Below, piece by piece: positions 1,832 through 43,670 of a DNA stretch of 64,000 nucleotides. Origin of the DNA: Psilocybe cubensis. Lineage: Eukaryota. A model generated the notes under the pieces. It did no database searches, was not told where the DNA came from, and saw only the letters and a program-made list of their open reading frames with translations. The stretch covers positions 186,001-250,000 of the forward strand of contig CM039004.1 of the NCBI GenBank assembly GCA_017499595.2, given 5' to 3'. The first letter of the stretch is position 1. Each line of letters starts with the position of its first letter. The translations under genes and the position numbers were made by a program.

Positions 1832-3754
1832 GACTCGACCAGCATGGAACTTGAATTGGAAGCACCCTCGACATGACACGCCAATGTCGAGCCAGTCGTC
1901 CTCTTCCCAGGTCAACCGGCCCGACTTGCATCCCCCCGAGAAGAAAGAGATAAAAGACAACATGAATTCCAAAATGGGCAAGCAAGTTGCTTGTTTAAAA
2001 TGGAAGAACAGTCAAACGTCGCCTCGATCATAGGGGTGCATAATGCTTATCAAGTGGCTGATATATAGTAGTAATAGTGGAGATGCAGGGGAGGTAATCG
2101 TTAATATTAAATAATATTTTTAATCAACAGTGATACCGACTCACCGAGCACCGACGAGTAACAACCGCGAATCTTCTGCGTCCTTCGTTACCATATCCGC
2201 ATCCGCATCCGCATCCGCAATCTGCGCGGCCGAGATATGTGCATTGGTCATTACTTTCCTTCTTTACATGTTCACTTCCATGATATGATCTCCAGACCCG
2301 TGCTGCTGGCTACTTACACTTCAATTACACTTCCAATTACATAGCGTAGAATAGGGTTAGGTATATTTATAACTGTTAGTGTTAGTGTTATGTCAAAGTC
2401 TCCTAAGTCTTCGGAGCGCGCTCAATTTGGATATCGAGGCTCAGAGCCGCTGAATTGTGCAAATGCCAAACGCTCGTCGGGGAGTTCAGTCCCGGTGGTA
2501 CTATGTTCACACTGATCAACGGTAGGTGGTATCAAAACATCACGCTGACCATGATTACTACTTGATTAAGTGAAAAAACAACCCGCTAACCAATTGCATC
2601 AGCATTTTTTGGCTGCATAAAACTATACATCCCAGTCACACGCCGCGCGCGCTCAACGACATCTACCGACAAAAATGTAACCCGGAGAGACTTTCACCGG
2701 ACCTTCAAATTAAAACCATTCTGCATTCCCGACAATGACAATAGCTTAGCTTGTTTTCTCATGACACAGGGCAGCGAAGCTAACCCACCTAACCCAGATC
2801 CACCCGCGCTATTGACGTGCCGTGCCACATCTGGATGCCCTATCACATACACACGTAGCGCGGAAGCACAGTGAAGCACGAATCCCAAAGCGTCAAGTAT
2901 GCATCGGTGACGCGAGGACTCTGACCTCTGACAAGGGGTAAGTAGATAGCTTATCAGACGTCGCATCCCCATCCTTCCCAGCCCACGAAAGAAAGCACCT
3001 TCTTGTTCGTTCCTGGACCGGGTGGAGCATCCTATCTCCTTTGTTTGTTGTTCGCAGGGATGGGTAATAGCCAGCACCATCTGATTAACAAGAAATATTC
3101 CTGGAAGAAAATCGTCGTTGTTAGTTTGAGCACACGCATGTTCCATGCCCATGTTCAACAATCAGGGTGAAAGGGTGAAAGGTTCCATGATGGTCAGATT
3201 TCGAATTTCCAACCTTACCCTACGTTTCAATTTCGAGTCTATGAGTACCCTCACTGAACTGACATGACATAATAGAGCTCTCCGAAGACAGAAGACAGAG
3301 GTTCCAGTTCAGCGGGCACACAGGCACATCCGAATCCGAATCCGAGGCGTTTGCGTTTGCCACCGCCACGACAGAACAGAACAGAACAGCGTCATTCGTA
3401 CACTCCTTACTCTTCCATCTTCATGTCATTCCGACCTTCAGCTTCGGGTGTGACTATATACAACCATATACAACTCACACGCGCATCGCTCAAAACACCC
3501 ACCTGTAATTTATATCTCCACAAACACACACCAGTTTCCAAACAAAGACACCCAGAAAATTACGGAGTACAATATTATACAAACACCAAACACGAAACAC
3601 GAAACAGATTAAAAACCTTACCGCCACCGGACTGATCTTCTACTTGTACGTTTCTACTGTCCTCCCTCCTAGACTCGAATACGTATGTATGTATGGGAAG
3701 TGATATCTGGAAGAGCATATGTATATGATCATGAGTAAGAGCCTCACGCTAACA
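1832..3754. repeat. A1: left terminal A segment; left part diverged, right part matches internal copies
   Basis: SNPs and indels versus 9671-10189 up to position 2352 (AATAGGG vs AACAGGG); no differences seen afterwards. Confidence 0.93.
2694..3152 (-). CDS. Possible orphan ORF (~152 aa from ATG, MGMEHACAQ...) in segment A; present in all 7 A copies
   Basis: Longest ORF of the unit and still open in the diverged A7 (54354-54818), where I count 4 synonymous and 3 non-synonymous changes. No recognisable domain. Confidence 0.2.
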   Translation of the reverse strand: MGMEHACAQTNNDDFLPGIFLVNQMVLAITHPCEQQTKEIGCSTRSRNEQEGAFFRGLGRMGMRRLISYLLTPCQRSESSRHRCILDALGFVLHCASALRVYVIGHPDVARHVNSAGGSGLGGLASLPCVMRKQAKLLSLSGMQNGFNLKVR

Positions 3755-6700
3755 GGCTTAGTACTTCGTAGTGCAGTTGAAAGTGAAAAAGCGGCGTTGT
3801 GTGTTAAAATCGGGGGAATGCGTGATGATAATTTCCAAATGTAGAGCGAGTTACCATATTTTGACGACCCTGAGTGAAAGAGATAGAAGTTTTTTCTTAA
3901 ATTTTGCTAGGTGAACTTGCATAGGTTCTCCCCGCCCGAAGGCCTGCCATATATTTTTCTATCTACAACAAACAAGGTGCCTAAAGAATCCTGTCATGTC
4001 GGCACCCTTCAAAGTTGATAGGAAGTCGGGAAGTTGTCATCGCGGAAACTCCTAATCTAGATGGGCAGTAACATAGCTTTCATTGTCACGGTACAAATGT
4101 TGCAACACGATACAGAATTGAACAGTGAAACTTACCTGCAAGTTTGCCTTGACGACACGCACCGCGATCGCCTCCAAGCACATGTTGTAGGTTGTATTGT
4201 GCACATACGTCTTTGGGATACCTGTGAACTTCCTGTCAGTCTCGCTGCAGCTCGATGTAAAAAGAACAAGCGCTCAACAACACATGCTGCTGGCAGAATA
4301 GTTGGACACGGACACAAAACATTGCTTGCGGGAACTTCAGAAACCAAAGTTCAAATTCTGCAAACGGAGAATGGTGAGAACACGCTACAGAATTGGACCA
4401 TACAACCTACGTGGACTCAATACCCGGCCGCGGGAACCTCAGAGCACAGAACATTGCTCGCGGGAACTCCAAAAATCGAATTTTGAAATCTGGCGACAGA
4501 GAACCTCTGAGCACAAAATGTTGCTCGCGGGAAGTCCAAAAAACCGGCTGCTGACAGAATAGTGAGGACACAATACAGAGTTGGGAAATAGCACCTACGT
4601 GGACTCGACAGCCGCGGGAACTTCAGAGCACAAAACATTGCTCGCGGGAACTCCAAAAAACCGAACATCGAATTCTGGTAACCGAATAGTGAGTACACAA
4701 GATGTAATTGGACAATGCCCGGCCAGAACATTGGTCCCAAAATACTGTTCAAGAGAATAGTGAGGAAACGACACGGAATTGGACAACGGCACCTACGTGG
4801 ACTTGACACCCAGCCCGGGGGAACACAATGGCCGTGAAAAAACATCGCTCGCGGGAGCTCCAAAAATCAATTTTTAAAATCTGCTGAGAGAATAGTGAGT
4901 ACACGATATGGAGTTGAGCAATGACACGTACGTGGACTCGACACCCAGGCCGCGGGAACTCCAAATATTGAATTTGAGCACACTGTGCGTGTCGGCGGAC
5001 GTCCAAATATCAAATATGGGTGGGGTGCTCGCCGGAGCTCCAAAAATGCTGTTCAAGAGAGTAGTGAGGACACAACACAGACTTGGACACCAACACCTAC
5101 CTGGACTCAACACCCAGGTCATGGGAACACAATGCCAGTGAAAAACATTGCTCGCGGGAGACCCAAAAATCAATTCTTAAATTCTGTTGAGAGAATAGTG
5201 AGTACACGATGCAGAGTTGGACAATGACACGTACGTGGACTCGACACCCAGGCCGCGGGAACTCCAAATATCGAATTTGAGTACACCGTGATGGCCTAGC
5301 AGTGTCGGCGGACGTCCAAATATCAAATTTGGGTGGGACAGCATCATGTAGCGGACTGGCATAAACTCGGGATACAATCCCTGGCAAAGGAAAAAAATCA
5401 AAGTCGACCTATATACCGCATATTCAAGCTCCGCTATCCCTGCCACAAACAAACCCAAATTCTTCTAGCTCTGATCAATTTCGCTCCTATCAAGGTATAC
5501 GTACATATCCCGCTCCAGCTCAATTTTCAGACCGTAGAATACTTCATCTTCAATTCAACCCTGAAGATACTTTGAATTCAGTCTACAAAACAAAATGACA
5601 CTCAACTTTACATCACAGACACGAGTTCGAATGAAGACAACGCTTCAAGATCAAAAATAACGCACAAGTCCTCAATAACGAAACCACGCCGCTAGCGAAT
5701 ATCGGCTACTAGTAAGCAATATCTGGATCTAAAACCCAGCCCGTCGGTGCCCACAAACCAATCGTGCGGTTTTCAGGGTCGAAAATCTGCCTTTGAATGA
5801 CGCAAGTCTATCAAATTCAGGCCCCAAATTGAGTTTCCGGCTATTTTAGGTATGGTTGAAAGCTCAATTCTAAGGATTAACTGTGGATGCGTGTGATTCT
5901 GATGCAATTCTCTGTTTGTTCAAGGTAAGATTCCAACTAAAAGTCTATGTCGCATTTTCGGACTCAAAATCCGTGATTGATCGCTCCCCAGCGATTATAC
6001 GTCACTAGGTACTATCTTATTTGTCTGTGTCGCCGGACGCCCACAAACAAGTTCACAACCCGAGCCAAATTCGGATTGCCATGCTAATTTAAATAGTGCC
6101 TACGTCCAGACGGGTAGAAAAACATGTTTAAACTCTGAAAACGGGTATATATAACGTACCTTGCCTGCTTTCCATAGCCGGGACCTGTCCAAAAATATAT
6201 TTAAAACTGACATTAACACTCGTCGATAGAACTCGAATGGCGGTTGTTGAAGCTCCTGGAAAACGGTAACATTGCATTCACTGCTAGAGAACAAGACAGG
6301 CTTATCTATACCAGTTTAGTTCATTAGGAGAGGTTGGAAACTACGCTACACAGACAGATCTTTGCATAGTAACCGTTTAAACACATTTCAAGCTCACCAA
6401 ATCATATAACGGATGAAAACAGCGAGCCAACAGTATACAATGAGCATACTTCACAAAGGTCACCGTGTCTGTACAAATTTGTGCACTCCAGACGCTCGTA
6501 AACTATCTAAATTAACATTCAAATCGAAATAACCCACTACACGGACCCACAACCACCACTAAAGACACCCGGAAACGGCTGGAATGAGGTACATACAGAG
6601 ATACCCCACCGATAGCATCACTAACCCACAAGCCAGACCTGCTCGCATGTCACATAGACCACATCCAACGCCACGAACCAACCTCCTCCTCCTCCCCATT

Positions 6701-6870
6701 TACACATCCACAAGCATCTCAACCCGCGTTCTTTTCGCCCCCTTCGCGTTTCAGACCCATTACGACACCCCTTACATACACGATCGAACTATCTGTCAGA
6801 AGAAAATGAGAGGAAGACGCGGTGAACTCGACGAACGTTGCTGTGTGCTGGCAGCACATACACGCTATTT
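3755..6870 (-). ncRNA. Putative spliced non-coding transcript, left arm of B (ends approximate)
   Basis: Minus-strand TATAAA at 6897-6902 followed by a CT-rich tract; many minus-strand GT..AG segments including six regular introns at 4358-5234. My manual splicing of 5380-4797 reaches stops. No expression data. Confidence 0.35.
4287..5335 (-). repeat. Degenerate tandem exon-intron repeat (~130-190 bp monomers, ~303-bp higher-order dimer); present in every B
   Basis: Recurring motifs GAATAGTGAG(T/G)ACAC, C(C/G)TACGTGGACTCGAC, GCCGCGGGAACTCC, AACATTGCTCGCGGGA. On the minus strand monomers contain a 51-53-nt GTA(C/G)GT...CTCAC...CAG intron-like segment (5184-5234, 5049-5100, 4881-4931, 4745-4796, 4548-4598, 4358-4410). 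Confidence 0.85.
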
Positions 6871-6896
6871 GCGCAGAGAACGCGGTTTTGTACGTG

Positions 6897-6902
6897 TTTA
6901 TA
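6897..6902 (-). promoter_or_regulatory. Putative TATA box of the leftward transcription unit
   Basis: CTCTATAAAC on the minus strand, followed ~80-110 nt downstream by TCTTCCTCTCATTTTCTTCT. Confidence 0.35.
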
Positions 6903-8046
6903 GAGTCAGAGGGGCTATATGGTAACTTGAGTGGTATCCGGATATCGTTGGGAGGTTGGTGAGGCCGTGGATTCGCGGTCGAGGGTTGTTTGTGCAAATG
7001 ATCCCTGCATGTTGAAATCGCCCGTTTCACTCGAAATATCGTATATCTGTGCGTTTATGGTGAATGTGGGTGATTGTACACACAATATATTTCGCCACTT
7101 GATGTTCGAGATTGAAAATGTCAAGTCAGTTCTCAAATTCATCGAAACAATATCCATACTCGCCTCTTCTCCTCCACCCCGAATCCACCGCTCTTCTCTC
7201 AAATTTCGAACCGGATTCATATCACCCCCTAATCTATGAATACCCACTAGTCTATCTCACGTACATACTCGCATAATCCGAAGCTCAAACACGAAAATTT
7301 TCATCCATCTCCCGAGCACCGAATTCAGTTCTCCAGCACTAGAGCACAAAAACCACGTACGAGTTCAATAAAGACGCAAATTAAGAATACACCGAATGCA
7401 CACTAACACGTTTCGGATGTTCAGATAGTGCTCCAGGTTTGAATTTTTGCAACACAACTCACCAAGTGTGCATGATCCTCGGATGTCTCTCCCCGTCCCA
7501 TTCTTCCGAAAGAATGGCATTTTCAAACGACTTTGTTGTCAAGGGTTCTATTCGGGTGATACGTAATAGTGAACGGTGTTTTGAAAATGTTGGATCGAGC
7601 GGTGTCTTGACAAAAGCTAGATGTCGATGTTATGTATATTTCACTGAAATGCATTGTACGTACGGATTCAACGCGATGGCAATGACATACCGAGTAGTAG
7701 CAGAGTGAATAATTCAAATCTTGCAGCAGAGTGGCACTGTACTCGATAAAGCTGGAAGAAAGTTGACATTGCAAGAAATTCCATGTTTGAATCCAAACCG
7801 AAACGAAATGTCCATCAAACACACCGAAACAAAATGTCCAAATCAAACACACCAAAAACACATCTATTCACAGTTCCAAAAGGTTTAACGACAGAAGCAA
7901 GCCGTACATACCCTCGGCTAGCACTCGCTTCGCATTGAACTAGCAAAAACTCATTCGTAGATCCTCAAACTCGGACCCTGCAAAGCACGGTACAACCCGA
8001 AATTGCATAGCGTACCGGTGTACGTACAGCGGCGTGTTTCTGGGAC

Positions 8047-8135
8047 TATAAAAGGGTGCGTGAATCGACTCACTTTTTCCCATTCCACTCCCACTCCCCT
8101 CTCAGGGGTCCTCTCCTCTCTCCTCCCCTGTTCTG
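8047..8135 (+). promoter_or_regulatory. Putative core promoter: TATAAAA plus CT-rich box
   Basis: GGGACTATAAAAGGG at 8042-8056, then a ~60-nt pyrimidine tract (CACTTTTTCCCATTCCACTCCCACTCCCCT...CTCTCCTCTCTCCTCCCCT) and a canonical first intron at 8155-8219; typical fungal Pol II layout. Confidence 0.6.
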
Positions 8136-9660
8136 CACGGTGTCGGTTGTTCAGGTAAGCTATTCAGCTGCGCTTTGACACCGCGACTGACGGTGTTTTA
8201 CCGCCTGTTTGTGTGCCAGGTCATCGACTCGACTGACGAGCAGAGCACAGCAGACGTGTCCTGCACACGGTGAGTGAACTGCTTGGGTCTGTTGAGACGA
8301 TGCTGAATGGTGGTGTCGTGGTCTAGACGCGTTGTAGCGACATATTCAGTGAGTACGAGTGAAAATGTGTGACTCGCCTCATCCTGACGCGTCCCCCTTG
8401 CCCCCATTGCCACAGGTCATTGTGCTGCTCATGGGTTGACGTGTCGCGCTGGAACGTGAGTACGAACCCTACACACACGTACATAACCACTCCCATAGTG
8501 CTGCAAGACCCTTCTCGTGTCGTTTCACGCTCTCTGCCGCGTTGTTGAGAACTCGATTGAGGCCGGGCTAGAATGAGAGGTAGATGTGAGTACGAGCCTT
8601 ACACACATGTACATGACCACTCACCGGACACTTCCATTGTGCTTGTCGTTCCGCCCTCTCTGCGCCGTGGCGCCATGGTCTGTGAGTACAAGTAAAAACA
8701 AGATAGTCACGCCACGCTGAAGCTCTTTTCCTCACCCGATGACTGCTCGCCGTATACAAGAGGACCCGCCCATTGCACAGCAAGACCCTTACACCACCAC
8801 CCGTCATTTCGCCCTGTCTGCCGATTTGTGCATCGTGAGATGCGCCATAGCGCCATGTCCTGTGAGTACATATGAAAATGGCCTGGTCGCGTCATGCTGA
8901 AGCACCCTTCTTCACCCCCGCTATCACAGGTTGCCACCCATAGCACTGGACCTCGAGGCAACAGTGAGTACTAAATCCCAAACACATATAGATGTCCGCT
9001 CACCGTGTGTAAAAGGACCATTTTGTTGTGATGCAAAGAGACCTTCCCCGCCCATCGCTTTGCCCGTTGGATGCGCCGCGGCGCTGTGTTCAGTGAGTAA
9101 AGTGAATATAAAACCCCTTCACTGAATCACCTCGTCTCGACCTAGTGTCCAGTGTTGTGTTGAGGCTAGGCATATTGGTGAGTAAGAGGACGACGGCCTG
9201 GCCAACCCCTCGTTTATGACCTTGTAAGCTGAATAGATGGTGTCCAGTGTTGTGCAGGAGGGTGTAATGGATGTGTCGGGGTTAGGCATGGTGGTGAGTA
9301 AGACTACATAACCACTCACCGTGTGTAAGAGGATGACGTCCCTCATTTTTGACCTCGTACACTGCCAAAGTGCTGTCCCACCCCGCTCGCCTCTAACAGC
9401 CCCGCACAACCACTCGTTTTCGACCTCGTATGCTTGGTGTCTAGTGTTGGGCAGGAGGATATAAGTGATGTGTTGATGTTAGGCATAGTGGTGAGTAAGA
9501 CTACATAACTGCTCACCGTGTGCAAGAGGATGACGTCCCTCATTTTTGACCTTGTACACTGCCAGAGTGCTGTCCCACCCCGCTCGCCTCTGATAAGACC
9601 CCACGGACCAGACGGAAAGTTGTAGGCATGGTACGTGATGATTATGCGTCGGGAAACAGT
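8075..9660 (+). ncRNA. Putative multi-intron non-coding transcript, right arm of B (~12 donor sites, mostly short exons)
   Basis: Donor GTAAGC at 8155 and GTGAGT at 8270, 8349, 8456, 8586, 8682, 8862, 8964, 9093, 9178, 9294, 9491. Well-formed introns 8155-8219, 8270-8326, 8349-8415, 8862-8929, 8964-9015, 9093-9145, 9178-9236. First spliced ATG reads ATG GGT TGA. Confidence 0.5.
9238..9591 (+). repeat. Two-copy 197-bp direct tandem duplication within the right arm of B
   Basis: GTGGTGAGTAAGACTACATAAC...GCTGTCCCACCCCGCTCGCCTCT occurs at ~9291-9394 and ~9488-9591. Confidence 0.9.
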
Positions 9661-9670
9661 GGTTAGACTC

Positions 9671-12600
9671 GACTCGACCAGCATGGAACTTGAATTGGAA
9701 GCACCCTCGACATGACACGCCAATGTCGAGTCAGTCATCCTGGCCAACGGTCCGACTTGCAAGATAAAAGACAACATGAATTCCATAATTGGAAAGCAAG
9801 TTGCTTGTTTAAAATGGAAGAACAGTCAAACGTCGCCTCGATCATAGGGGTGCATAATACTTATCAAGTGGCTGATATATAGTAGTAATAGTGGAGATAC
9901 AGGGGAGGTAATCATTAATATCATTATTAATCAACAGTGAGACCTACTCACCGAGCACCGACGAGTAACAACCGCGAATCTTCTGCGTCCTTCGTTACCA
10001 TATCCGCATCCGCATCCGCATCCAAAATCTGCGCGGCCGAGATATGTGCATGTGTATGCACTCGACACTCGGTTGGTGTTGGTGAGTCATTACTTTTACT
10101 TTCCTTCTTTACATGTTCACTTTGACCTCCAGACCCGTGCTGCTGGCCACTTACACTTCAATTACACTTCCAATTACATAGCGTAGAACAGGGTTAGGTA
10201 TATTTATAACTGTTAGTGTTAGTGTTATGTCAAAGTCTCCTAAGTCTTCGGAGCGCGCTCAATTTGGATATCGAGGCTCAGAGCCGCTGAATTGTGCAAA
10301 TGCCAAACGCTCGTCGGGGAGTTCAGTCCCGGTGGTACTATGTTCACACTGATCAACGGTAGGTGGTATCAAAACATCACGCTGACCATGATTACTACTT
10401 GATTAAGTGAAAAAACAACCCGCTAACCAATTGCATCAGCATTTTTTGGCTGCATAAAACTATACATCCCAGTCACACGCCGCGCGCGCTCAACGACATC
10501 TACCGACAAAAATGTAACCCGGAGAGACTTTCACCGGACCTTCAAATTAAAACCATTCTGCATTCCCGACAATGACAATAGCTTAGCTTGTTTTCTCATG
10601 ACACAGGGCAGCGAAGCTAACCCACCTAACCCAGATCCACCCGCGCTATTGACGTGCCGTGCCACATCTGGATGCCCTATCACATACACACGTAGCGCGG
10701 AAGCACAGTGAAGCACGAATCCCAAAGCGTCAAGTATGCATCGGTGACGCGAGGACTCTGACCTCTGACAAGGGGTAAGTAGATAGCTTATCAGACGTCG
10801 CATCCCCATCCTTCCCAGCCCACGAAAGAAAGCACCTTCTTGTTCGTTCCTGGACCGGGTGGAGCATCCTATCTCCTTTGTTTGTTGTTCGCAGGGATGG
10901 GTAATAGCCAGCACCATCTGATTAACAAGAAATATTCCTGGAAGAAAATCGTCGTTGTTAGTTTGAGCACACGCATGTTCCATGCCCATGTTCAACAATC
11001 AGGGTGAAAGGGTGAAAGGTTCCATGATGGTCAGATTTCGAATTTCCAACCTTACCCTACGTTTCAATTTCGAGTCTATGAGTACCCTCACTGAACTGAC
11101 ATGACATAATAGAGCTCTCCGAAGACAGAAGACAGAGGTTCCAGTTCAGCGGGCACACAGGCACATCCGAATCCGAATCCGAGGCGTTTGCGTTTGCCAC
11201 CGCCACGACAGAACAGAACAGAACAGCGTCATTCGTACACTCCTTACTCTTCCATCTTCATGTCATTCCGACCTTCAGCTTCGGGTGTGACTATATACAA
11301 CCATATACAACTCACACGCGCATCGCTCAAAACACCCACCTGTAATTTATATCTCCACAAACACACACCAGTTTCCAAACAAAGACACCCAGAAAATTAC
11401 GGAGTACAATATTATACAAACACCAAACACGAAACACGAAACAGATTAAAAACCTTACCGCCACCGGACTGATCTTCTACTTGTACGTTTCTACTGTCCT
11501 CCCTCCTAGACTCGAATACGTATGTATGTATGGGAAGTGATATCTGGAAGAGCATATGTATATGATCATGAGTAAGAGCCTCACGCTAACAGGCTTAGTA
11601 CTTCGTAGTGCAGTTGAAAGTGAAAAAGCGGCGTTGTGTGTTAAAATCGGGGGAATGCGTGATGATAATTTCCAAATGTAGAGCGAGTTACCATATTTTG
11701 ACGACCCTGAGTGAAAGAGATAGAAGTTTTTTCTTAAATTTTGCTAGGTGAACTTGCATAGGTTCTCCCCGCCCGAAGGCCTGCCATATATTTTTCTATC
11801 TACAACAAACAAGGTGCCTAAAGAATCCTGTCATGTCGGCACCCTTCAAAGTTGATAGGAAGTCGGGAAGTTGTCATCGCGGAAACTCCTAATCTAGATG
11901 GGCAGTAACATAGCTTTCATTGTCACGGTACAAATGTTGCAACACGATACAGAATTGAACAGTGAAACTTACCTGCAAGTTTGCCTTGACGACACGCACC
12001 GCGATCGCCTCCAAGCACATGTTGTAGGTTGTATTGTGCACATACGTCTTTGGGATACCTGTGAACTTCCTGTCAGTCTCGCTGCAGCTCGATGTAAAAA
12101 GAACAAGCGCTCAACAACACATGCTGCTGGCAGAATAGTTGGACACGGACACAAAACATTGCTTGCGGGAACTTCAGAAACCAAAGTTCAAATTCTGCAA
12201 ACGGAGAATGGTGAGAACACGCTACAGAATTGGACCATACAACCTACGTGGACTCAATACCCGGCCGCGGGAACCTCAGAGCACAGAACATTGCTCGCGG
12301 GAACTCCAAAAATCGAATTTTGAAATCTGGCGACAGAGAACCTCTGAGCACAAAATGTTGCTCGCGGGAAGTCCAAAAAACCGGCTGCTGACAGAATAGT
12401 GAGGACACAATACAGAGTTGGGAAATAGCACCTACGTGGACTCGACAGCCGCGGGAACTTCAGAGCACAAAACATTGCTCGCGGGAACTCCAAAAAACCG
12501 AACATCGAATTCTGGTAACCGAATAGTGAGTACACAAGATGTAATTGGACAATGCCCGGCCAGAACATTGGTCCCAAAATACTGTTCAAGAGAATAGTGA

Positions 12601-15600
12601 GGAAACGACACGGAATTGGACAACGGCACCTACGTGGACTTGACACCCAGCCCGGGGGAACACAATGGCCGTGAAAAAACATCGCTCGCGGGAGCTCCAA
12701 AAATCAATTTTTAAAATCTGCTGAGAGAATAGTGAGTACACGATATGGAGTTGAGCAATGACACGTACGTGGACTCGACACCCAGGCCGCGGGAACTCCA
12801 AATATTGAATTTGAGCACACTGTGCGTGTCGGCGGACGTCCAAATATCAAATATGGGTGGGGTGCTCGCCGGAGCTCCAAAAATGCTGTTCAAGAGAGTA
12901 GTGAGGACACAACACAGACTTGGACACCAACACCTACCTGGACTCAACACCCAGGTCATGGGAACACAATGCCAGTGAAAAACATTGCTCGCGGGAGACC
13001 CAAAAATCAATTCTTAAATTCTGTTGAGAGAATAGTGAGTACACGATGCAGAGTTGGACAATGACACGTACGTGGACTCGACACCCAGGCCGCGGGAACT
13101 CCAAATATCGAATTTGAGTACACCGTGATGGCCTAGCAGTGTCGGCGGACGTCCAAATATCAAATTTGGGTGGGACAGCATCATGTAGCGGACTGGCATA
13201 AACTCGGGATACAATCCCTGGCAAAGGAAAAAAATCAAAGTCGACCTATATACCGCATATTCAAGCTCCGCTATCCCTGCCACAAACAAACCCAAATTCT
13301 TCTAGCTCTGATCAATTTCGCTCCTATCAAGGTATACGTACATATCCCGCTCCAGCTCAATTTTCAGACCGTAGAATACTTCATCTTCAATTCAACCCTG
13401 AAGATACTTTGAATTCAGTCTACAAAACAAAATGACACTCAACTTTACATCACAGACACGAGTTCGAATGAAGACAACGCTTCAAGATCAAAAATAACGC
13501 ACAAGTCCTCAATAACGAAACCACGCCGCTAGCGAATATCGGCTACTAGTAAGCAATATCTGGATCTAAAACCCAGCCCGTCGGTGCCCACAAACCAATC
13601 GTGCGGTTTTCAGGGTCGAAAATCTGCCTTTGAATGACGCAAGTCTATCAAATTCAGGCCCCAAATTGAGTTTCCGGCTATTTTAGGTATGGTTGAAAGC
13701 TCAATTCTAAGGATTAACTGTGGATGCGTGTGATTCTGATGCAATTCTCTGTTTGTTCAAGGTAAGATTCCAACTAAAAGTCTATGTCGCATTTTCGGAC
13801 TCAAAATCCGTGATTGATCGCTCCCCAGCGATTATACGTCACTAGGTACTATCTTATTTGTCTGTGTCGCCGGACGCCCACAAACAAGTTCACAACCCGA
13901 GCCAAATTCGGATTGCCATGCTAATTTAAATAGTGCCTACGTCCAGACGGGTAGAAAAACATGTTTAAACTCTGAAAACGGGTATATATAACGTACCTTG
14001 CCTGCTTTCCATAGCCGGGACCTGTCCAAAAATATATTTAAAACTGACATTAACACTCGTCGATAGAACTCGAATGGCGGTTGTTGAAGCTCCTGGAAAA
14101 CGGTAACATTGCATTCACTGCTAGAGAACAAGACAGGCTTATCTATACCAGTTTAGTTCATTAGGAGAGGTTGGAAACTACGCTACACAGACAGATCTTT
14201 GCATAGTAACCGTTTAAACACATTTCAAGCTCACCAAATCATATAACGGATGAAAACAGCGAGCCAACAGTATACAATGAGCATACTTCACAAAGGTCAC
14301 CGTGTCTGTACAAATTTGTGCACTCCAGACGCTCGTAAACTATCTAAATTAACATTCAAATCGAAATAACCCACTACACGGACCCACAACCACCACTAAA
14401 GACACCCGGAAACGGCTGGAATGAGGTACATACAGAGATACCCCACCGATAGCATCACTAACCCACAAGCCAGACCTGCTCGCATGTCACATAGACCACA
14501 TCCAACGCCACGAACCAACCTCCTCCTCCTCCCCATTTACACATCCACAAGCATCTCAACCCGCGTTCTTTTCGCCCCCTTCGCGTTTCAGACCCATTAC
14601 GACACCCCTTACATACACGATCGAACTATCTGTCAGAAGAAAATGAGAGGAAGACGCGGTGAACTCGACGAACGTTGCTGTGTGCTGGCAGCACATACAC
14701 GCTATTTGCGCAGAGAACGCGGTTTTGTACGTGTTTATAGAGTCAGAGGGGCTATATGGTAACTTGAGTGGTATCCGGATATCGTTGGGAGGTTGGTGAG
14801 GCCGTGGATTCGCGGTCGAGGGTTGTTTGTGCAAATGATCCCTGCATGTTGAAATCGCCCGTTTCACTCGAAATATCGTATATCTGTGCGTTTATGGTGA
14901 ATGTGGGTGATTGTACACACAATATATTTCGCCACTTGATGTTCGAGATTGAAAATGTCAAGTCAGTTCTCAAATTCATCGAAACAATATCCATACTCGC
15001 CTCTTCTCCTCCACCCCGAATCCACCGCTCTTCTCTCAAATTTCGAACCGGATTCATATCACCCCCTAATCTATGAATACCCACTAGTCTATCTCACGTA
15101 CATACTCGCATAATCCGAAGCTCAAACACGAAAATTTTCATCCATCTCCCGAGCACCGAATTCAGTTCTCCAGCACTAGAGCACAAAAACCACGTACGAG
15201 TTCAATAAAGACGCAAATTAAGAATACACCGAATGCACACTAACACGTTTCGGATGTTCAGATAGTGCTCCAGGTTTGAATTTTTGCAACACAACTCACC
15301 AAGTGTGCATGATCCTCGGATGTCTCTCCCCGTCCCATTCTTCCGAAAGAATGGCATTTTCAAACGACTTTGTTGTCAAGGGTTCTATTCGGGTGATACG
15401 TAATAGTGAACGGTGTTTTGAAAATGTTGGATCGAGCGGTGTCTTGACAAAAGCTAGATGTCGATGTTATGTATATTTCACTGAAATGCATTGTACGTAC
15501 GGATTCAACGCGATGGCAATGACATACCGAGTAGTAGCAGAGTGAATAATTCAAATCTTGCAGCAGAGTGGCACTGTACTCGATAAAGCTGGAAGAAAGT

Positions 15601-17507
15601 TGACATTGCAAGAAATTCCATGTTTGAATCCAAACCGAAACGAAATGTCCATCAAACACACCGAAACAAAATGTCCAAATCAAACACACCAAAAACACAT
15701 CTATTCACAGTTCCAAAAGGTTTAACGACAGAAGCAAGCCGTACATACCCTCGGCTAGCACTCGCTTCGCATTGAACTAGCAAAAACTCATTCGTAGATC
15801 CTCAAACTCGGACCCTGCAAAGCACGGTACAACCCGAAATTGCATAGCGTACCGGTGTACGTACAGCGGCGTGTTTCTGGGACTATAAAAGGGTGCGTGA
15901 ATCGACTCACTTTTTCCCATTCCACTCCCACTCCCCTCTCAGGGGTCCTCTCCTCTCTCCTCCCCTGTTCTGCACGGTGTCGGTTGTTCAGGTAAGCTAT
16001 TCAGCTGCGCTTTGACACCGCGACTGACGGTGTTTTACCGCCTGTTTGTGTGCCAGGTCATCGACTCGACTGACGAGCAGAGCACAGCAGACGTGTCCTG
16101 CACACGGTGAGTGAACTGCTTGGGTCTGTTGAGACGATGCTGAATGGTGGTGTCGTGGTCTAGACGCGTTGTAGCGACATATTCAGTGAGTACGAGTGAA
16201 AATGTGTGACTCGCCTCATCCTGACGCGTCCCCCTTGCCCCCATTGCCACAGGTCATTGTGCTGCTCATGGGTTGACGTGTCGCGCTGGAACGTGAGTAC
16301 GAACCCTACACACACGTACATAACCACTCCCATAGTGCTGCAAGACCCTTCTCGTGTCGTTTCACGCTCTCTGCCGCGTTGTTGAGAACTCGATTGAGGC
16401 CGGGCTAGAATGAGAGGTAGATGTGAGTACGAGCCTTACACACATGTACATGACCACTCACCGGACACTTCCATTGTGCTTGTCGTTCCGCCCTCTCTGC
16501 GCCGTGGCGCCATGGTCTGTGAGTACAAGTAAAAACAAGATAGTCACGCCACGCTGAAGCTCTTTTCCTCACCCGATGACTGCTCGCCGTATACAAGAGG
16601 ACCCGCCCATTGCACAGCAAGACCCTTACACCACCACCCGTCATTTCGCCCTGTCTGCCGATTTGTGCATCGTGAGATGCGCCATAGCGCCATGTCCTGT
16701 GAGTACATATGAAAATGGCCTGGTCGCGTCATGCTGAAGCACCCTTCTTCACCCCCGCTATCACAGGTTGCCACCCATAGCACTGGACCTCGAGGCAACA
16801 GTGAGTACTAAATCCCAAACACATATAGATGTCCGCTCACCGTGTGTAAAAGGACCATTTTGTTGTGATGCAAAGAGACCTTCCCCGCCCATCGCTTTGC
16901 CCGTTGGATGCGCCGCGGCGCTGTGTTCAGTGAGTAAAGTGAATATAAAACCCCTTCACTGAATCACCTCGTCTCGACCTAGTGTCCAGTGTTGTGTTGA
17001 GGCTAGGCATATTGGTGAGTAAGAGGACGACGGCCTGGCCAACCCCTCGTTTATGACCTTGTAAGCTGAATAGATGGTGTCCAGTGTTGTGCAGGAGGGT
17101 GTAATGGATGTGTCGGGGTTAGGCATGGTGGTGAGTAAGACTACATAACCACTCACCGTGTGTAAGAGGATGACGTCCCTCATTTTTGACCTCGTACACT
17201 GCCAAAGTGCTGTCCCACCCCGCTCGCCTCTAACAGCCCCGCACAACCACTCGTTTTCGACCTCGTATGCTTGGTGTCTAGTGTTGGGCAGGAGGATATA
17301 AGTGATGTGTTGATGTTAGGCATAGTGGTGAGTAAGACTACATAACTGCTCACCGTGTGCAAGAGGATGACGTCCCTCATTTTTGACCTTGTACACTGCC
17401 AGAGTGCTGTCCCACCCCGCTCGCCTCTGATAAGACCCCACGGACCAGACGGAAAGTTGTAGGCATGGTACGTGATGATTATGCGTCGGGAAACAGTGGT
17501 TAGACTC
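9671..17507. repeat. Unit 2 (A2 9671-11591 + B2 11592-17507)
   Basis: ORF translations identical to neighbouring units at offset 7837. Confidence 0.95.
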
Positions 17508-20500
17508 GACTCGACCAGCATGGAACTTGAATTGGAAGCACCCTCGACATGACACGCCAATGTCGAGTCAGTCATCCTGGCCAACGGTCCGACTTGCAAG
17601 ATAAAAGACAACATGAATTCCATAATTGGAAAGCAAGTTGCTTGTTTAAAATGGAAGAACAGTCAAACGTCGCCTCGATCATAGGGGTGCATAATACTTA
17701 TCAAGTGGCTGATATATAGTAGTAATAGTGGAGATACAGGGGAGGTAATCATTAATATCATTATTAATCAACAGTGAGACCTACTCACCGAGCACCGACG
17801 AGTAACAACCGCGAATCTTCTGCGTCCTTCGTTACCATATCCGCATCCGCATCCGCATCCAAAATCTGCGCGGCCGAGATATGTGCATGTGTATGCACTC
17901 GACACTCGGTTGGTGTTGGTGAGTCATTACTTTTACTTTCCTTCTTTACATGTTCACTTTGACCTCCAGACCCGTGCTGCTGGCCACTTACACTTCAATT
18001 ACACTTCCAATTACATAGCGTAGAACAGGGTTAGGTATATTTATAACTGTTAGTGTTAGTGTTATGTCAAAGTCTCCTAAGTCTTCGGAGCGCGCTCAAT
18101 TTGGATATCGAGGCTCAGAGCCGCTGAATTGTGCAAATGCCAAACGCTCGTCGGGGAGTTCAGTCCCGGTGGTACTATGTTCACACTGATCAACGGTAGG
18201 TGGTATCAAAACATCACGCTGACCATGATTACTACTTGATTAAGTGAAAAAACAACCCGCTAACCAATTGCATCAGCATTTTTTGGCTGCATAAAACTAT
18301 ACATCCCAGTCACACGCCGCGCGCGCTCAACGACATCTACCGACAAAAATGTAACCCGGAGAGACTTTCACCGGACCTTCAAATTAAAACCATTCTGCAT
18401 TCCCGACAATGACAATAGCTTAGCTTGTTTTCTCATGACACAGGGCAGCGAAGCTAACCCACCTAACCCAGATCCACCCGCGCTATTGACGTGCCGTGCC
18501 ACATCTGGATGCCCTATCACATACACACGTAGCGCGGAAGCACAGTGAAGCACGAATCCCAAAGCGTCAAGTATGCATCGGTGACGCGAGGACTCTGACC
18601 TCTGACAAGGGGTAAGTAGATAGCTTATCAGACGTCGCATCCCCATCCTTCCCAGCCCACGAAAGAAAGCACCTTCTTGTTCGTTCCTGGACCGGGTGGA
18701 GCATCCTATCTCCTTTGTTTGTTGTTCGCAGGGATGGGTAATAGCCAGCACCATCTGATTAACAAGAAATATTCCTGGAAGAAAATCGTCGTTGTTAGTT
18801 TGAGCACACGCATGTTCCATGCCCATGTTCAACAATCAGGGTGAAAGGGTGAAAGGTTCCATGATGGTCAGATTTCGAATTTCCAACCTTACCCTACGTT
18901 TCAATTTCGAGTCTATGAGTACCCTCACTGAACTGACATGACATAATAGAGCTCTCCGAAGACAGAAGACAGAGGTTCCAGTTCAGCGGGCACACAGGCA
19001 CATCCGAATCCGAATCCGAGGCGTTTGCGTTTGCCACCGCCACGACAGAACAGAACAGAACAGCGTCATTCGTACACTCCTTACTCTTCCATCTTCATGT
19101 CATTCCGACCTTCAGCTTCGGGTGTGACTATATACAACCATATACAACTCACACGCGCATCGCTCAAAACACCCACCTGTAATTTATATCTCCACAAACA
19201 CACACCAGTTTCCAAACAAAGACACCCAGAAAATTACGGAGTACAATATTATACAAACACCAAACACGAAACACGAAACAGATTAAAAACCTTACCGCCA
19301 CCGGACTGATCTTCTACTTGTACGTTTCTACTGTCCTCCCTCCTAGACTCGAATACGTATGTATGTATGGGAAGTGATATCTGGAAGAGCATATGTATAT
19401 GATCATGAGTAAGAGCCTCACGCTAACAGGCTTAGTACTTCGTAGTGCAGTTGAAAGTGAAAAAGCGGCGTTGTGTGTTAAAATCGGGGGAATGCGTGAT
19501 GATAATTTCCAAATGTAGAGCGAGTTACCATATTTTGACGACCCTGAGTGAAAGAGATAGAAGTTTTTTCTTAAATTTTGCTAGGTGAACTTGCATAGGT
19601 TCTCCCCGCCCGAAGGCCTGCCATATATTTTTCTATCTACAACAAACAAGGTGCCTAAAGAATCCTGTCATGTCGGCACCCTTCAAAGTTGATAGGAAGT
19701 CGGGAAGTTGTCATCGCGGAAACTCCTAATCTAGATGGGCAGTAACATAGCTTTCATTGTCACGGTACAAATGTTGCAACACGATACAGAATTGAACAGT
19801 GAAACTTACCTGCAAGTTTGCCTTGACGACACGCACCGCGATCGCCTCCAAGCACATGTTGTAGGTTGTATTGTGCACATACGTCTTTGGGATACCTGTG
19901 AACTTCCTGTCAGTCTCGCTGCAGCTCGATGTAAAAAGAACAAGCGCTCAACAACACATGCTGCTGGCAGAATAGTTGGACACGGACACAAAACATTGCT
20001 TGCGGGAACTTCAGAAACCAAAGTTCAAATTCTGCAAACGGAGAATGGTGAGAACACGCTACAGAATTGGACCATACAACCTACGTGGACTCAATACCCG
20101 GCCGCGGGAACCTCAGAGCACAGAACATTGCTCGCGGGAACTCCAAAAATCGAATTTTGAAATCTGGCGACAGAGAACCTCTGAGCACAAAATGTTGCTC
20201 GCGGGAAGTCCAAAAAACCGGCTGCTGACAGAATAGTGAGGACACAATACAGAGTTGGGAAATAGCACCTACGTGGACTCGACAGCCGCGGGAACTTCAG
20301 AGCACAAAACATTGCTCGCGGGAACTCCAAAAAACCGAACATCGAATTCTGGTAACCGAATAGTGAGTACACAAGATGTAATTGGACAATGCCCGGCCAG
20401 AACATTGGTCCCAAAATACTGTTCAAGAGAATAGTGAGGAAACGACACGGAATTGGACAACGGCACCTACGTGGACTTGACACCCAGCCCGGGGGAACAC

Positions 20501-23500
20501 AATGGCCGTGAAAAAACATCGCTCGCGGGAGCTCCAAAAATCAATTTTTAAAATCTGCTGAGAGAATAGTGAGTACACGATATGGAGTTGAGCAATGACA
20601 CGTACGTGGACTCGACACCCAGGCCGCGGGAACTCCAAATATTGAATTTGAGCACACTGTGCGTGTCGGCGGACGTCCAAATATCAAATATGGGTGGGGT
20701 GCTCGCCGGAGCTCCAAAAATGCTGTTCAAGAGAGTAGTGAGGACACAACACAGACTTGGACACCAACACCTACCTGGACTCAACACCCAGGTCATGGGA
20801 ACACAATGCCAGTGAAAAACATTGCTCGCGGGAGACCCAAAAATCAATTCTTAAATTCTGTTGAGAGAATAGTGAGTACACGATGCAGAGTTGGACAATG
20901 ACACGTACGTGGACTCGACACCCAGGCCGCGGGAACTCCAAATATCGAATTTGAGTACACCGTGATGGCCTAGCAGTGTCGGCGGACGTCCAAATATCAA
21001 ATTTGGGTGGGACAGCATCATGTAGCGGACTGGCATAAACTCGGGATACAATCCCTGGCAAAGGAAAAAAATCAAAGTCGACCTATATACCGCATATTCA
21101 AGCTCCGCTATCCCTGCCACAAACAAACCCAAATTCTTCTAGCTCTGATCAATTTCGCTCCTATCAAGGTATACGTACATATCCCGCTCCAGCTCAATTT
21201 TCAGACCGTAGAATACTTCATCTTCAATTCAACCCTGAAGATACTTTGAATTCAGTCTACAAAACAAAATGACACTCAACTTTACATCACAGACACGAGT
21301 TCGAATGAAGACAACGCTTCAAGATCAAAAATAACGCACAAGTCCTCAATAACGAAACCACGCCGCTAGCGAATATCGGCTACTAGTAAGCAATATCTGG
21401 ATCTAAAACCCAGCCCGTCGGTGCCCACAAACCAATCGTGCGGTTTTCAGGGTCGAAAATCTGCCTTTGAATGACGCAAGTCTATCAAATTCAGGCCCCA
21501 AATTGAGTTTCCGGCTATTTTAGGTATGGTTGAAAGCTCAATTCTAAGGATTAACTGTGGATGCGTGTGATTCTGATGCAATTCTCTGTTTGTTCAAGGT
21601 AAGATTCCAACTAAAAGTCTATGTCGCATTTTCGGACTCAAAATCCGTGATTGATCGCTCCCCAGCGATTATACGTCACTAGGTACTATCTTATTTGTCT
21701 GTGTCGCCGGACGCCCACAAACAAGTTCACAACCCGAGCCAAATTCGGATTGCCATGCTAATTTAAATAGTGCCTACGTCCAGACGGGTAGAAAAACATG
21801 TTTAAACTCTGAAAACGGGTATATATAACGTACCTTGCCTGCTTTCCATAGCCGGGACCTGTCCAAAAATATATTTAAAACTGACATTAACACTCGTCGA
21901 TAGAACTCGAATGGCGGTTGTTGAAGCTCCTGGAAAACGGTAACATTGCATTCACTGCTAGAGAACAAGACAGGCTTATCTATACCAGTTTAGTTCATTA
22001 GGAGAGGTTGGAAACTACGCTACACAGACAGATCTTTGCATAGTAACCGTTTAAACACATTTCAAGCTCACCAAATCATATAACGGATGAAAACAGCGAG
22101 CCAACAGTATACAATGAGCATACTTCACAAAGGTCACCGTGTCTGTACAAATTTGTGCACTCCAGACGCTCGTAAACTATCTAAATTAACATTCAAATCG
22201 AAATAACCCACTACACGGACCCACAACCACCACTAAAGACACCCGGAAACGGCTGGAATGAGGTACATACAGAGATACCCCACCGATAGCATCACTAACC
22301 CACAAGCCAGACCTGCTCGCATGTCACATAGACCACATCCAACGCCACGAACCAACCTCCTCCTCCTCCCCATTTACACATCCACAAGCATCTCAACCCG
22401 CGTTCTTTTCGCCCCCTTCGCGTTTCAGACCCATTACGACACCCCTTACATACACGATCGAACTATCTGTCAGAAGAAAATGAGAGGAAGACGCGGTGAA
22501 CTCGACGAACGTTGCTGTGTGCTGGCAGCACATACACGCTATTTGCGCAGAGAACGCGGTTTTGTACGTGTTTATAGAGTCAGAGGGGCTATATGGTAAC
22601 TTGAGTGGTATCCGGATATCGTTGGGAGGTTGGTGAGGCCGTGGATTCGCGGTCGAGGGTTGTTTGTGCAAATGATCCCTGCATGTTGAAATCGCCCGTT
22701 TCACTCGAAATATCGTATATCTGTGCGTTTATGGTGAATGTGGGTGATTGTACACACAATATATTTCGCCACTTGATGTTCGAGATTGAAAATGTCAAGT
22801 CAGTTCTCAAATTCATCGAAACAATATCCATACTCGCCTCTTCTCCTCCACCCCGAATCCACCGCTCTTCTCTCAAATTTCGAACCGGATTCATATCACC
22901 CCCTAATCTATGAATACCCACTAGTCTATCTCACGTACATACTCGCATAATCCGAAGCTCAAACACGAAAATTTTCATCCATCTCCCGAGCACCGAATTC
23001 AGTTCTCCAGCACTAGAGCACAAAAACCACGTACGAGTTCAATAAAGACGCAAATTAAGAATACACCGAATGCACACTAACACGTTTCGGATGTTCAGAT
23101 AGTGCTCCAGGTTTGAATTTTTGCAACACAACTCACCAAGTGTGCATGATCCTCGGATGTCTCTCCCCGTCCCATTCTTCCGAAAGAATGGCATTTTCAA
23201 ACGACTTTGTTGTCAAGGGTTCTATTCGGGTGATACGTAATAGTGAACGGTGTTTTGAAAATGTTGGATCGAGCGGTGTCTTGACAAAAGCTAGATGTCG
23301 ATGTTATGTATATTTCACTGAAATGCATTGTACGTACGGATTCAACGCGATGGCAATGACATACCGAGTAGTAGCAGAGTGAATAATTCAAATCTTGCAG
23401 CAGAGTGGCACTGTACTCGATAAAGCTGGAAGAAAGTTGACATTGCAAGAAATTCCATGTTTGAATCCAAACCGAAACGAAATGTCCATCAAACACACCG

Positions 23501-25344
23501 AAACAAAATGTCCAAATCAAACACACCAAAAACACATCTATTCACAGTTCCAAAAGGTTTAACGACAGAAGCAAGCCGTACATACCCTCGGCTAGCACTC
23601 GCTTCGCATTGAACTAGCAAAAACTCATTCGTAGATCCTCAAACTCGGACCCTGCAAAGCACGGTACAACCCGAAATTGCATAGCGTACCGGTGTACGTA
23701 CAGCGGCGTGTTTCTGGGACTATAAAAGGGTGCGTGAATCGACTCACTTTTTCCCATTCCACTCCCACTCCCCTCTCAGGGGTCCTCTCCTCTCTCCTCC
23801 CCTGTTCTGCACGGTGTCGGTTGTTCAGGTAAGCTATTCAGCTGCGCTTTGACACCGCGACTGACGGTGTTTTACCGCCTGTTTGTGTGCCAGGTCATCG
23901 ACTCGACTGACGAGCAGAGCACAGCAGACGTGTCCTGCACACGGTGAGTGAACTGCTTGGGTCTGTTGAGACGATGCTGAATGGTGGTGTCGTGGTCTAG
24001 ACGCGTTGTAGCGACATATTCAGTGAGTACGAGTGAAAATGTGTGACTCGCCTCATCCTGACGCGTCCCCCTTGCCCCCATTGCCACAGGTCATTGTGCT
24101 GCTCATGGGTTGACGTGTCGCGCTGGAACGTGAGTACGAACCCTACACACACGTACATAACCACTCCCATAGTGCTGCAAGACCCTTCTCGTGTCGTTTC
24201 ACGCTCTCTGCCGCGTTGTTGAGAACTCGATTGAGGCCGGGCTAGAATGAGAGGTAGATGTGAGTACGAGCCTTACACACATGTACATGACCACTCACCG
24301 GACACTTCCATTGTGCTTGTCGTTCCGCCCTCTCTGCGCCGTGGCGCCATGGTCTGTGAGTACAAGTAAAAACAAGATAGTCACGCCACGCTGAAGCTCT
24401 TTTCCTCACCCGATGACTGCTCGCCGTATACAAGAGGACCCGCCCATTGCACAGCAAGACCCTTACACCACCACCCGTCATTTCGCCCTGTCTGCCGATT
24501 TGTGCATCGTGAGATGCGCCATAGCGCCATGTCCTGTGAGTACATATGAAAATGGCCTGGTCGCGTCATGCTGAAGCACCCTTCTTCACCCCCGCTATCA
24601 CAGGTTGCCACCCATAGCACTGGACCTCGAGGCAACAGTGAGTACTAAATCCCAAACACATATAGATGTCCGCTCACCGTGTGTAAAAGGACCATTTTGT
24701 TGTGATGCAAAGAGACCTTCCCCGCCCATCGCTTTGCCCGTTGGATGCGCCGCGGCGCTGTGTTCAGTGAGTAAAGTGAATATAAAACCCCTTCACTGAA
24801 TCACCTCGTCTCGACCTAGTGTCCAGTGTTGTGTTGAGGCTAGGCATATTGGTGAGTAAGAGGACGACGGCCTGGCCAACCCCTCGTTTATGACCTTGTA
24901 AGCTGAATAGATGGTGTCCAGTGTTGTGCAGGAGGGTGTAATGGATGTGTCGGGGTTAGGCATGGTGGTGAGTAAGACTACATAACCACTCACCGTGTGT
25001 AAGAGGATGACGTCCCTCATTTTTGACCTCGTACACTGCCAAAGTGCTGTCCCACCCCGCTCGCCTCTAACAGCCCCGCACAACCACTCGTTTTCGACCT
25101 CGTATGCTTGGTGTCTAGTGTTGGGCAGGAGGATATAAGTGATGTGTTGATGTTAGGCATAGTGGTGAGTAAGACTACATAACTGCTCACCGTGTGCAAG
25201 AGGATGACGTCCCTCATTTTTGACCTTGTACACTGCCAGAGTGCTGTCCCACCCCGCTCGCCTCTGATAAGACCCCACGGACCAGACGGAAAGTTGTAGG
25301 CATGGTACGTGATGATTATGCGTCGGGAAACAGTGGTTAGACTC
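17508..25344. repeat. Unit 3 (A3 17508-19428 + B3 19429-25344)
   Basis: ORF translations identical at offset 7837. Confidence 0.95.
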
Positions 25345-39036: not shown

Positions 39037-39217
39037 TGTTGGAATGATAGTCGGCGAGCGACTTGGTCGCTAAGTCGTTATCTTCCTCTTGTAGTTTATC
39101 TTATCATATTTTTTCTAGATTATTCTACTATAGGTTCCGTAGTTACTGTAGGTACAACCGTGTAGCTACGTCGTGAATCTACATCTTTTACCACCACTGC
39201 GCATTATACTTACAACA
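39037..39217 (+). repeat. 5' LTR (181 bp)
   Basis: TGTTGGAATG...ACTTACAACA; no difference seen from the 3' LTR. Confidence 0.98.
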
Positions 39218-39229
39218 GGTTATGGGCCC
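39218..39229 (+). promoter_or_regulatory. Primer-binding site complementary to the anticodon arm of initiator tRNA-Met (half-tRNA priming)
   Basis: GGTTATGGGCCC directly after the LTR; same PBS type as Drosophila copia. Confidence 0.85.
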
Positions 39230-39312
39230 CGAGAGGTCATAACTAAAGCTCGCTTTGTTCTAAACTCGTTCTATTCTTATCGATCTATATCTAAACTTGT
39301 ACTCGACGTCAA

Positions 39313-43482: not shown

Positions 43483-43489
43483 GGGGGAG
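43481..43489 (+). other. Polypurine tract
   Basis: AAGGGGGAG directly before the 3' LTR, overlapping the pol stop codon. Confidence 0.9.
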
Positions 43490-43670
43490 TGTTGGAATGA
43501 TAGTCGGCGAGCGACTTGGTCGCTAAGTCGTTATCTTCCTCTTGTAGTTTATCTTATCATATTTTTTCTAGATTATTCTACTATAGGTTCCGTAGTTACT
43601 GTAGGTACAACCGTGTAGCTACGTCGTGAATCTACATCTTTTACCACCACTGCGCATTATACTTACAACA
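43490..43670 (+). repeat. 3' LTR (181 bp)
   Basis: Identical to 39037-39217 by eye. Confidence 0.98.

Follow-up and report, generated by a model that had tools for sequence, protein, structure and literature searches.

The window analyzed here, 64,000 nucleotides of Psilocybe cubensis DNA (GenBank assembly GCA_017499595.2, contig CM039004.1, positions 186,001 to 250,000; all coordinates below are window positions), contains on its plus strand a ladder of twelve splice-donor-like sites that starts at 8155. Our leading, although tentative, interpretation is that this ladder represents a spliced non-coding RNA polymerase II (Pol II) transcript whose exon-intron modules multiplied by duplication. 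Eleven of the sites are copies of GTGAGT located within 1227 bases, and the twelfth is GTAAGC at 8155 (Table 1); a recount gave the same numbers as an earlier inspection of the bare sequence, the first-pass annotation. About 0.39 copies of GTGAGT would be expected by chance in 1227 bases of one strand. This expectation comes from shuffles of the whole window, which had 40.74 copies (standard deviation 6.21) per 128,000 strand-bases when both strands were counted, while the observed number was 137, a value reached in 0 of 100 shuffles. The ladder of GTGAGT motifs far exceeds chance. Only two copies, at 8619 and 9314, are on the minus strand within the ladder. Ten of the eleven plus strand copies extend to GTGAGTA, six of them as GTGAGTAC and four as GTGAGTAA. 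The extended motif is found 13 times on the plus strand and once on the minus strand of each 7837-bp unit of the tandem array that includes the ladder, and only twice in the approximately 10 kb outside the array, where one of the two occurrences is an RNA-verified donor at 60432.

The flanking genes provided introns for calibration. Transcriptome contigs (X12 and X13) defined 11 GT-AG joints between 58452 and 63244, in a gene with a WSC domain (plus strand, ~58.0–59.7 kb), a second plus strand gene (60.2–60.9 kb), and a minus strand gene (62.1–63.3 kb). The verified introns are 52, 52, 56, 60, 62, 62, 67, 85, 88, 110, and 128 nt long, seven of the 11 being in the 52–67 nt range, and the candidate introns of the ladder are similar in size. 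The verified donors were GTACGT (two), GTATGT (two), GTAAGT, GTGCGA (two), GTGCGT, GTGAGA, and GTGAGT (two). All 12 ladder sites fit GT[AG]AG[TC], and the verified set includes GTGAGT in two and GTAAGT in one of 11 cases. When read by eye, the likely branch sites of the verified introns were of a loose CTNA type (CTTAA, CTTAC, CTGAA, CTGAT, TTCAC, CTAAC, and CTGAC).

Candidate introns in the ladder were called with a rule that demanded a CTNA[ACT] branch, a YAG as the first AG to occur 8 nt or more beyond it, and a length of 48–90 nt. Seven of the 12 donors had a well-formed intron of 53–75 nt under this relaxed rule, whose branch definition was fixed after viewing the verified introns and the list in the first-pass annotation. 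Donor-preserving shuffles gave a mean of 2.3 (standard deviation 1.4), and 3 of 1000 reached seven, a proportion that overstates the significance because the shuffles ignore the kinship of the sub-repeats. The claim that at least seven donors pair with a branch-like motif and an acceptor holds in this form; with a strict CTRAY branch only two of 12 donors pass, a result equaled by 229 of 1000 shuffles and hence not above chance. The candidate exons 8220–8269 (50 nt), 8327–8348 (22 nt), 8416–8455 (40 nt), 8930–8963 (34 nt), and 9146–9177 (32 nt) reproduced all the exon sizes that had been listed.

Table 1. Positions of the ladder sites and of the other features discussed in the text
Feature	Positions	Strand	Description
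50-bp island	7987..8036	+	directly upstream of the TATA box; at least 90% likeness in strain X10, flanks unlike
TATA-box-like motif	8047..8054	+	TATAAAAG; single occurrence per unit; first donor 108 nt downstream
Candidate intron 1	8155..8219	+	65 nt; GTAAGC donor; CTGAC branch 29 nt before CAG acceptor
Candidate intron 2	8270..8326	+	57 nt; GTGAGT donor; CTGAA branch; TAG acceptor
Candidate intron 3	8349..8415	+	67 nt; GTGAGTAC donor; CTGAC branch 28 nt before CAG acceptor; sub-family A
Donor motif	8456..8461	+	sub-family B; no rule-passing acceptor, just AAG at 8507
Donor motif	8586..8591	+	sub-family B; no acceptor ahead of the next donor
Donor motif	8682..8687	+	sub-family A; CTGAAG retained; acceptors AAG or distant CAG only
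Candidate intron	8862..8929	+	68 nt; GTGAGTAC donor; CTGAA branch; CAG acceptor; sub-family A
Donor motif	8964..8969	+	sub-family B; acceptors AAG only (9015, 9038)
Candidate intron	9093..9145	+	53 nt (or 60 nt, end 9152); GTGAGTAA donor; CTGAA branch; TAG acceptor; sub-family A
Candidate intron	9178..9247	+	70 nt; GTGAGTAA donor; CTGAA branch; CAG acceptor; sub-family C
Donor motif	9294..9299	+	sub-family C; in the 9238–9394 member of the 157-nt repeat pair (90% identity)
Candidate intron	9491..9565	+	75 nt; GTGAGTAA donor; CTCAT branch; CAG acceptor; sub-family C; in the 9435–9591 repeat copy
Tandem array	1832..55417	+	7837-bp period; (S X) six times and a final S; ~6.2 copies
Decayed sub-repeat	12100..13200	+	unrelated to the ladder; same place in every unit; period 134–198 nt; units carry GAATAGTGAG[T/G/A]ACAC
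Ty1/copia long terminal repeat (LTR) retrotransposon	39037..43670	+	in one array unit; target duplication GACAT (39032–39036, 43671–43675)

The ladder is preceded by a promoter-like element. Across the window the TATA-like motif was matched seven times, once in each unit on the plus strand and once more, at 239, on the minus strand. A CT-rich tract (8075–8135) follows it, and exon 1 is a CT-rich leader that has no ATG. The 50-bp island upstream of the motif is shared with X10, a set of DNA reads from another strain under the same species label. The raw reads of X10 align at 51811–51860, which is equivalent to the position of the island within the unit, with loose ends in 45 reads on one side and in 40 on the other. 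The consensus of the downstream loose ends is CTATAAAAG, five bases, and then CGTGAAT. Since this consensus repeats the CTATAAAAG..CGTGAAT of the window, a diverged homologue of the promoter-like element that kept its core exists elsewhere in the species. A metagenome scan with a 28-base pattern of the promoter island gave no matches; another with a 20-base degenerate TATA pattern identified 58 loci, of which not one resembled the unit by blastn or contained four or more GTGAGT in 1.3 kb. Two other features were noticed in the unit. One is a 26-nt tandem repeat at 7797–7857 (2.3 copies of ACCGAAACAAAATGTCCAATCAAACAC), about 200 nt upstream of the TATA box. The other is a second 50-base island, 11681–11732 (equivalent to 47668–47719), which also has at least 90% likeness in X10 between unlike flanks (39 and 40 reads).

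The first-pass annotation did not mention the tandem array, in which the ladder is one of six copies present in the window. Each unit of the array consists of two segments, S (9671–11591) and X (11592–17507), and the promoter-like element and the ladder constitute the 3′ end of X. The other runs of GTGAGT are at 16107–17328, 23944–25165, 31781–33002, 44257–45478, and 52094–53314. Interior copies are ~100% identical over whole 500-base windows. The edges of the array are diverged: 1832–2400 is 84% identical to 9671–10237 and 55000–55417 is 96% identical to 11176–11591, with several differences in the last ~220 bases ahead of 55417. An LTR element or a large retrotransposon derivative (LARD) was considered for the S-X-S layout. 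This possibility was rejected because S begins with GACTCGACC and ends with CTAACA, lacking TG..CA ends, and because its flanks, AGTCA and CGAAT, are not duplicated, so that there is no target duplication. The unit as a whole was likewise rejected as an LTR, LARD, or terminal inverted repeat element; it has no long direct or inverted terminal repeats, no gag-pol, and no Pfam match. A complete retrotransposon of the Ty1/copia type is present in one of the units. It has short LTRs and an open gag-pol frame of 1395 amino acids with the Pfam domains RVT_2 (6e-64), Retrotran_gag_2, and rve, and its insertion looks recent.

The array varies among strains. X10 covers S (from ~53.5–53.9 kb) and the right flank at near single-copy depth, approximately 10 per strand compared to 6–31 in the bins of the flank, and over the rest of X, outside the ladder, it covers small islands only. 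Nine sequencing runs contained any part of 7900–9900; six of them held 95–98% of its words and the other three held 5–7%. By the coverage of X10 and the word content of the runs, the amplified unit, and perhaps X itself in its present form, is confined to one lineage, that of runs X1–X6. Another data set, X7, proved not to be a diverged relative; four pieces of 151 nt showed no differences from the window, and the data come, at low depth, from the same strain or one almost identical to it. The six runs rich in words of the ladder region are DNA or of undeclared kind, and there is no RNA run among the holders. The X12 and X13 contigs, which are RNA as judged by the 11 GT-AG joints, cover the flanking genes, with no contig on 51257–54562. 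The strains that they come from may lack the array (in the flank they differ ~1–2% from the window), a contig can reveal presence but not absence, and a spliced product with exons of 22–50 nt would share few 31-mers with the genome; for these reasons the two data sets are uninformative about expression of the ladder.

How the ladder acquired so many donors can be addressed by comparing the surroundings of the motifs. Ten of them fall in three sub-families with recognizable shared flanks: A (GCGCC..GTGAGTAC..GCTGAAG), B (GTGAGTACGAGCCTTACACACATGTACAT..CACTCACC), and C (TTAGGCATNGTGGTGAGTAAGA). The three sub-families are descendants of local duplications. There is one long self-match in the ladder, 157 nt at 90% identity between 9238–9394 and 9435–9591. 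Other self-similarity is limited to stretches of ~15–37 nt, and a donor lies inside three of the five short pairs as well as inside the 157-nt pair. In sub-family A, a CTGA[AC] is found at +29 to +37 in all four donors in spite of an identity of 66–74% over 35 nt. When the 11 donor-centered segments of 101 nt were aligned, the mean column identity was 48%, and GTGAGTA supplied the sole invariant column and six of the ten columns conserved at 90% or more, although anchoring the alignment on the motif biases it toward conservation of GTGAGTA. That donor and branch-like motif were kept as the sequence around them decayed suggests continued recognition by the splicing machinery. The first-pass annotation proposed selection on splicing, or on the motif as a binding site, rather than on coding. 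The absence of a coding signal and a co-occurrence of donor, branch, and acceptor above that in shuffles agree with this idea, but selection on splicing itself is not demonstrated. The uniformity of the donors would be predicted by duplication without selection and fits common descent at least as well.

In the pathway that we infer, the ladder consists of locally duplicated mini modules, each with a GTGAGTA donor, a (G)CTGA-type branch ~29–50 nt on, and a YAG ~15–30 nt further. The TATA-type promoter from which Pol II would transcribe the block would lie immediately upstream of it; the 7.8-kb non-coding unit that contains both was amplified about six-fold in one lineage. Transcription would start near 8075–8100 and produce a non-coding Pol II RNA of which the ladder modules would be the 5′ 1.4 kb. 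The first three introns and several later ones, probably about seven in all, would actually be spliced out as ordinary short introns, and the RNA may have a function. The number and uniformity of the donors would result from the duplication of two or three ancestral modules, represented by A, B, and C.

Several observations weigh against this pathway, in addition to the limits of the intron count described above. Most of them also support its main rival, as do the shared flanks of sub-families A, B, and C; in this rival, a segment with two or three donor-like motifs was tandem-duplicated and is now decaying, is not spliced and perhaps not transcribed, and has no function beyond membership in a young strain-specific amplification. 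All 11 ladder donors read GTGAGT, compared to two of 11 verified donors with this sequence, which points to duplication. Apparent paralogues with a decayed motif are found at 9321 (GTGTGTAAGAGGA) and 9518 (GTGTGCAAGAGGA), in family D8. Five of the 12 donors have no acceptable intron even under the relaxed rule. The guanine plus cytosine content is 43–58% in the candidate introns and 46–61% in their exons and lacks the AT-rich contrast seen in the RNA-verified introns, which are clearly AT-richer than their exons (27–50% versus 49–55%). X10 has no read with 90% or higher likeness on 52359–53460, equivalent to most of the ladder, meaning that within the species the sequence is either absent or fast-evolving. 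Finally, in the sub-repeat at 12100–13200, GTGAG[T/G/A]A is a plain part of the repeat unit and variable at +6; three of its units read GTGAGTAC (12526, 12732, and 13035). On the other side, a decaying relic does not readily account for GTGAGTA supplying most of the near-invariant columns in such a poorly conserved alignment, for the confinement of the similarity outside the 157-nt pair to short stretches that often hold a donor, for the excess of well-formed introns, or for the suitably placed TATA box with an upstream island kept in another strain. On balance we regard the relic as unlikely, although it is the strongest of the competing explanations.

The spliced non-coding transcript also has to be distinguished from the remnant of an intron-rich protein-coding gene in which an internal exon-intron segment was duplicated and the frame was lost. 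Such genes are typical of Agaricomycetes, a remnant would have the same intron-like anatomy and promoter, and short exons with introns of 52–67 nt are the norm in the neighboring genes. We consider this origin improbable in view of the coding analyses. No stop-to-stop frame of the unit exceeds 160 amino acids. None of the 71 open reading frames (ORFs) of at least 55 amino acids in the unit reached a Pfam curated cut-off, and six had chance-level rows with E values of 0.0026–0.07. The longest ORF of the region, 160 amino acids on the minus strand under the ladder, has no Pfam match and no homologue (none of 20 candidates at E ≤ 0.01), and a minus strand gene was rejected on these grounds. The enumeration of isoforms that the first-pass annotation had recommended was made as a splice-graph search with 21 donor-like sites and 73 candidate introns; it produced a best ATG-initiated ORF of 239 amino acids, a length reached by 44 of 60 donor-preserving shuffles; the hypothetical isoform products were judged by length against shuffles only. 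Removal of the seven good introns leaves a longest ATG-initiated ORF of 56 amino acids. The first ATG of the leader, spliced or unspliced, is that of ATG GGT TGA at 8431 and closes after two codons. The statements that the ladder has no reading frame and that its first ATG is closed at once were therefore both borne out, and the unit is non-coding, with no sign of coding in any of these analyses.

A different function was considered for the same donors. Many strong, partly unpaired 5′ splice sites could load U1 small nuclear ribonucleoprotein (snRNP) or stalled spliceosomes and thereby bring about nuclear or chromatin retention of the RNA or RNA interference (RNAi), which might for instance silence the amplified array. 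The extension of 10 of the 11 donors to GTGAGTA is compatible with this function, as an A at +7 lengthens the pairing to the 5′ end of U1. The five donors of the 12 that have no usable acceptor and the location in a repeated unit that carries a retrotransposon are also compatible. Mechanisms of this type are known in other organisms, according to the portions of the reports available (PMC4380460, PMC9074902, 10.1101/310433, PMC6643885); in those portions they are documented in mammals and Cryptococcus and not in Agaricales. Considering also that duplication explains the uniformity of the donors, a platform of this kind is a poor candidate. A slightly less probable version is that about a dozen 5′ splice sites of maximal strength, several without acceptors, were selected as such, and that the RNA, loaded with U1 snRNP or stalled spliceosomes, would tether to its own array or trigger RNAi or heterochromatin over the macrosatellite.

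The least probable explanation, that a DNA-binding protein recognizes GTGAGTA(C/A) (TACTCAC on the opposite strand) in a clustered regulatory or structural element, would agree with a motif that is clustered and more uniform than splicing requires, but it has very little in its favor given the one-sided orientation (11:2 in the ladder and 13:1 per unit), the branch and acceptor motifs that co-occur at intron-like distances, the lack of inverted repeats of 20 nt or longer in 7900–10200, and the folds of eight donor or intron segments, which were not better than those of shuffles (z from −1.55 to +0.90). The same fold scores led us to drop the idea of a hairpin between GGTGAGT and ACTCACC.

The predicted spliced transcript can be compared with known systems. 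Like multi-exonic spliced long non-coding RNA (lncRNA) genes, the ladder has a TATA-like promoter, a CT-rich leader, GT-AG candidate introns of the size usual in the species, and no frame in any isoform. Unlike them, its introns are local duplicates with identical donors, its unit is amplified about six-fold, and it is known here from DNA sequence. Introner-like elements are introns dispersed in near-identical copies over many unrelated genes; within the window, the candidate introns have local copies only. With a unit longer than 1 kb repeated head to tail in several copies (7837 bp, ~6.2 copies), the array qualifies as a macrosatellite. Human D4Z4 and DXZ4, macrosatellites with a transcription unit in every repeat, have in common with it the near-identical head-to-tail units on the kilobase scale, a copy number or presence that varies by strain, and one promoter-like motif per unit; the differences are the fungal host and a unit without an ORF. 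A literature search returned no paper with a bearing on the ladder, either about tandem repeats or lncRNA in Psilocybe or about macrosatellites in fungi.

Genes that host small nucleolar RNAs (snoRNAs) are non-coding and have one snoRNA per intron. The ladder would resemble them in yielding a multi-intron RNA that is non-coding, begins with a pyrimidine-rich leader, and has short exons that are not conserved. It differs in that the window has no snoRNA or other Rfam family and in that candidate introns of 53–75 nt are too short for a snoRNA. At gathering scores there were no Rfam matches in the 64 kb, and E-value mode on one unit gave only a chance match to mir-24 (E 4.2); a snoRNA host, a structured RNA, and ribosomal DNA were all unsupported for lack of an Rfam family. 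The other two comparisons are with systems that respond to 5′ splice sites. The accessible parts of three reports (PMC4380460, PMC9074902, 10.1101/310433) describe RNAs that a 5′ splice-site motif retains, in a U1-dependent way, in the nucleus or on chromatin. As far as those parts go, the ladder is similar in having many strong consensus 5′ splice sites in a non-coding context, several without a good acceptor, and different in that the mammalian cases are single motifs while the ladder has 11, most with intron-like partners. In the spliceosome-coupled and nuclear RNAi (SCANR) pathway of Cryptococcus, as described in the accessible part of the literature, stalled spliceosomes trigger RNAi on transposon transcripts. 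The likeness to this system lies in the basidiomycete host, the repeated DNA, and candidate introns whose 5′ end is strong and whose 3′ signals are weak. The unit differs by having no transposon coding sequence of its own, and the pathway was not found shown in Agaricales in that part of the literature.

A ladder that is transcribed and spliced would clearly exemplify the multiplication of exon-intron modules through local duplication within a non-coding gene, and the gene itself would have been amplified into a macrosatellite of 7.8-kb units that varies among strains of a single fungal species. It would then offer a natural system to study how splice signals persist without coding constraint, and the locus could be used to test whether clustered 5′ splice sites have a part in retaining or silencing RNA in basidiomycetes. 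Were the improbable version with selected donors true, a mushroom-forming fungus would possess a cis-acting retention or silencing device based on splice signals. If the locus is silent, it is merely a young strain-specific segmental amplification with a decaying repeat.

Other observations concern the rest of the unit and the flanks. The sub-repeat at 12100–13200 also carries GGGAACTCCAAAAA. The X12 and X13 RNA contigs match short parts of this sub-repeat (48280–48485) and then continue into sequence of a different kind; a repeat related to it thus seems to be expressed from another genomic location. S includes an (ATCCGC)3.7 microsatellite at 10002–10023. In the right flank, the exon at 58897–59202 of the WSC-domain gene is 100% identical to a Psilocybe cubensis protein, and the next matches, from Gymnopilus and Galerina, are at 71%. 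Beside the expressed genes, the 1110 bases between 60994 and 62103 are skipped in X10 DNA reads (29 reads) and in an X7 contig; this segment is an insertion/deletion polymorphism between strains.

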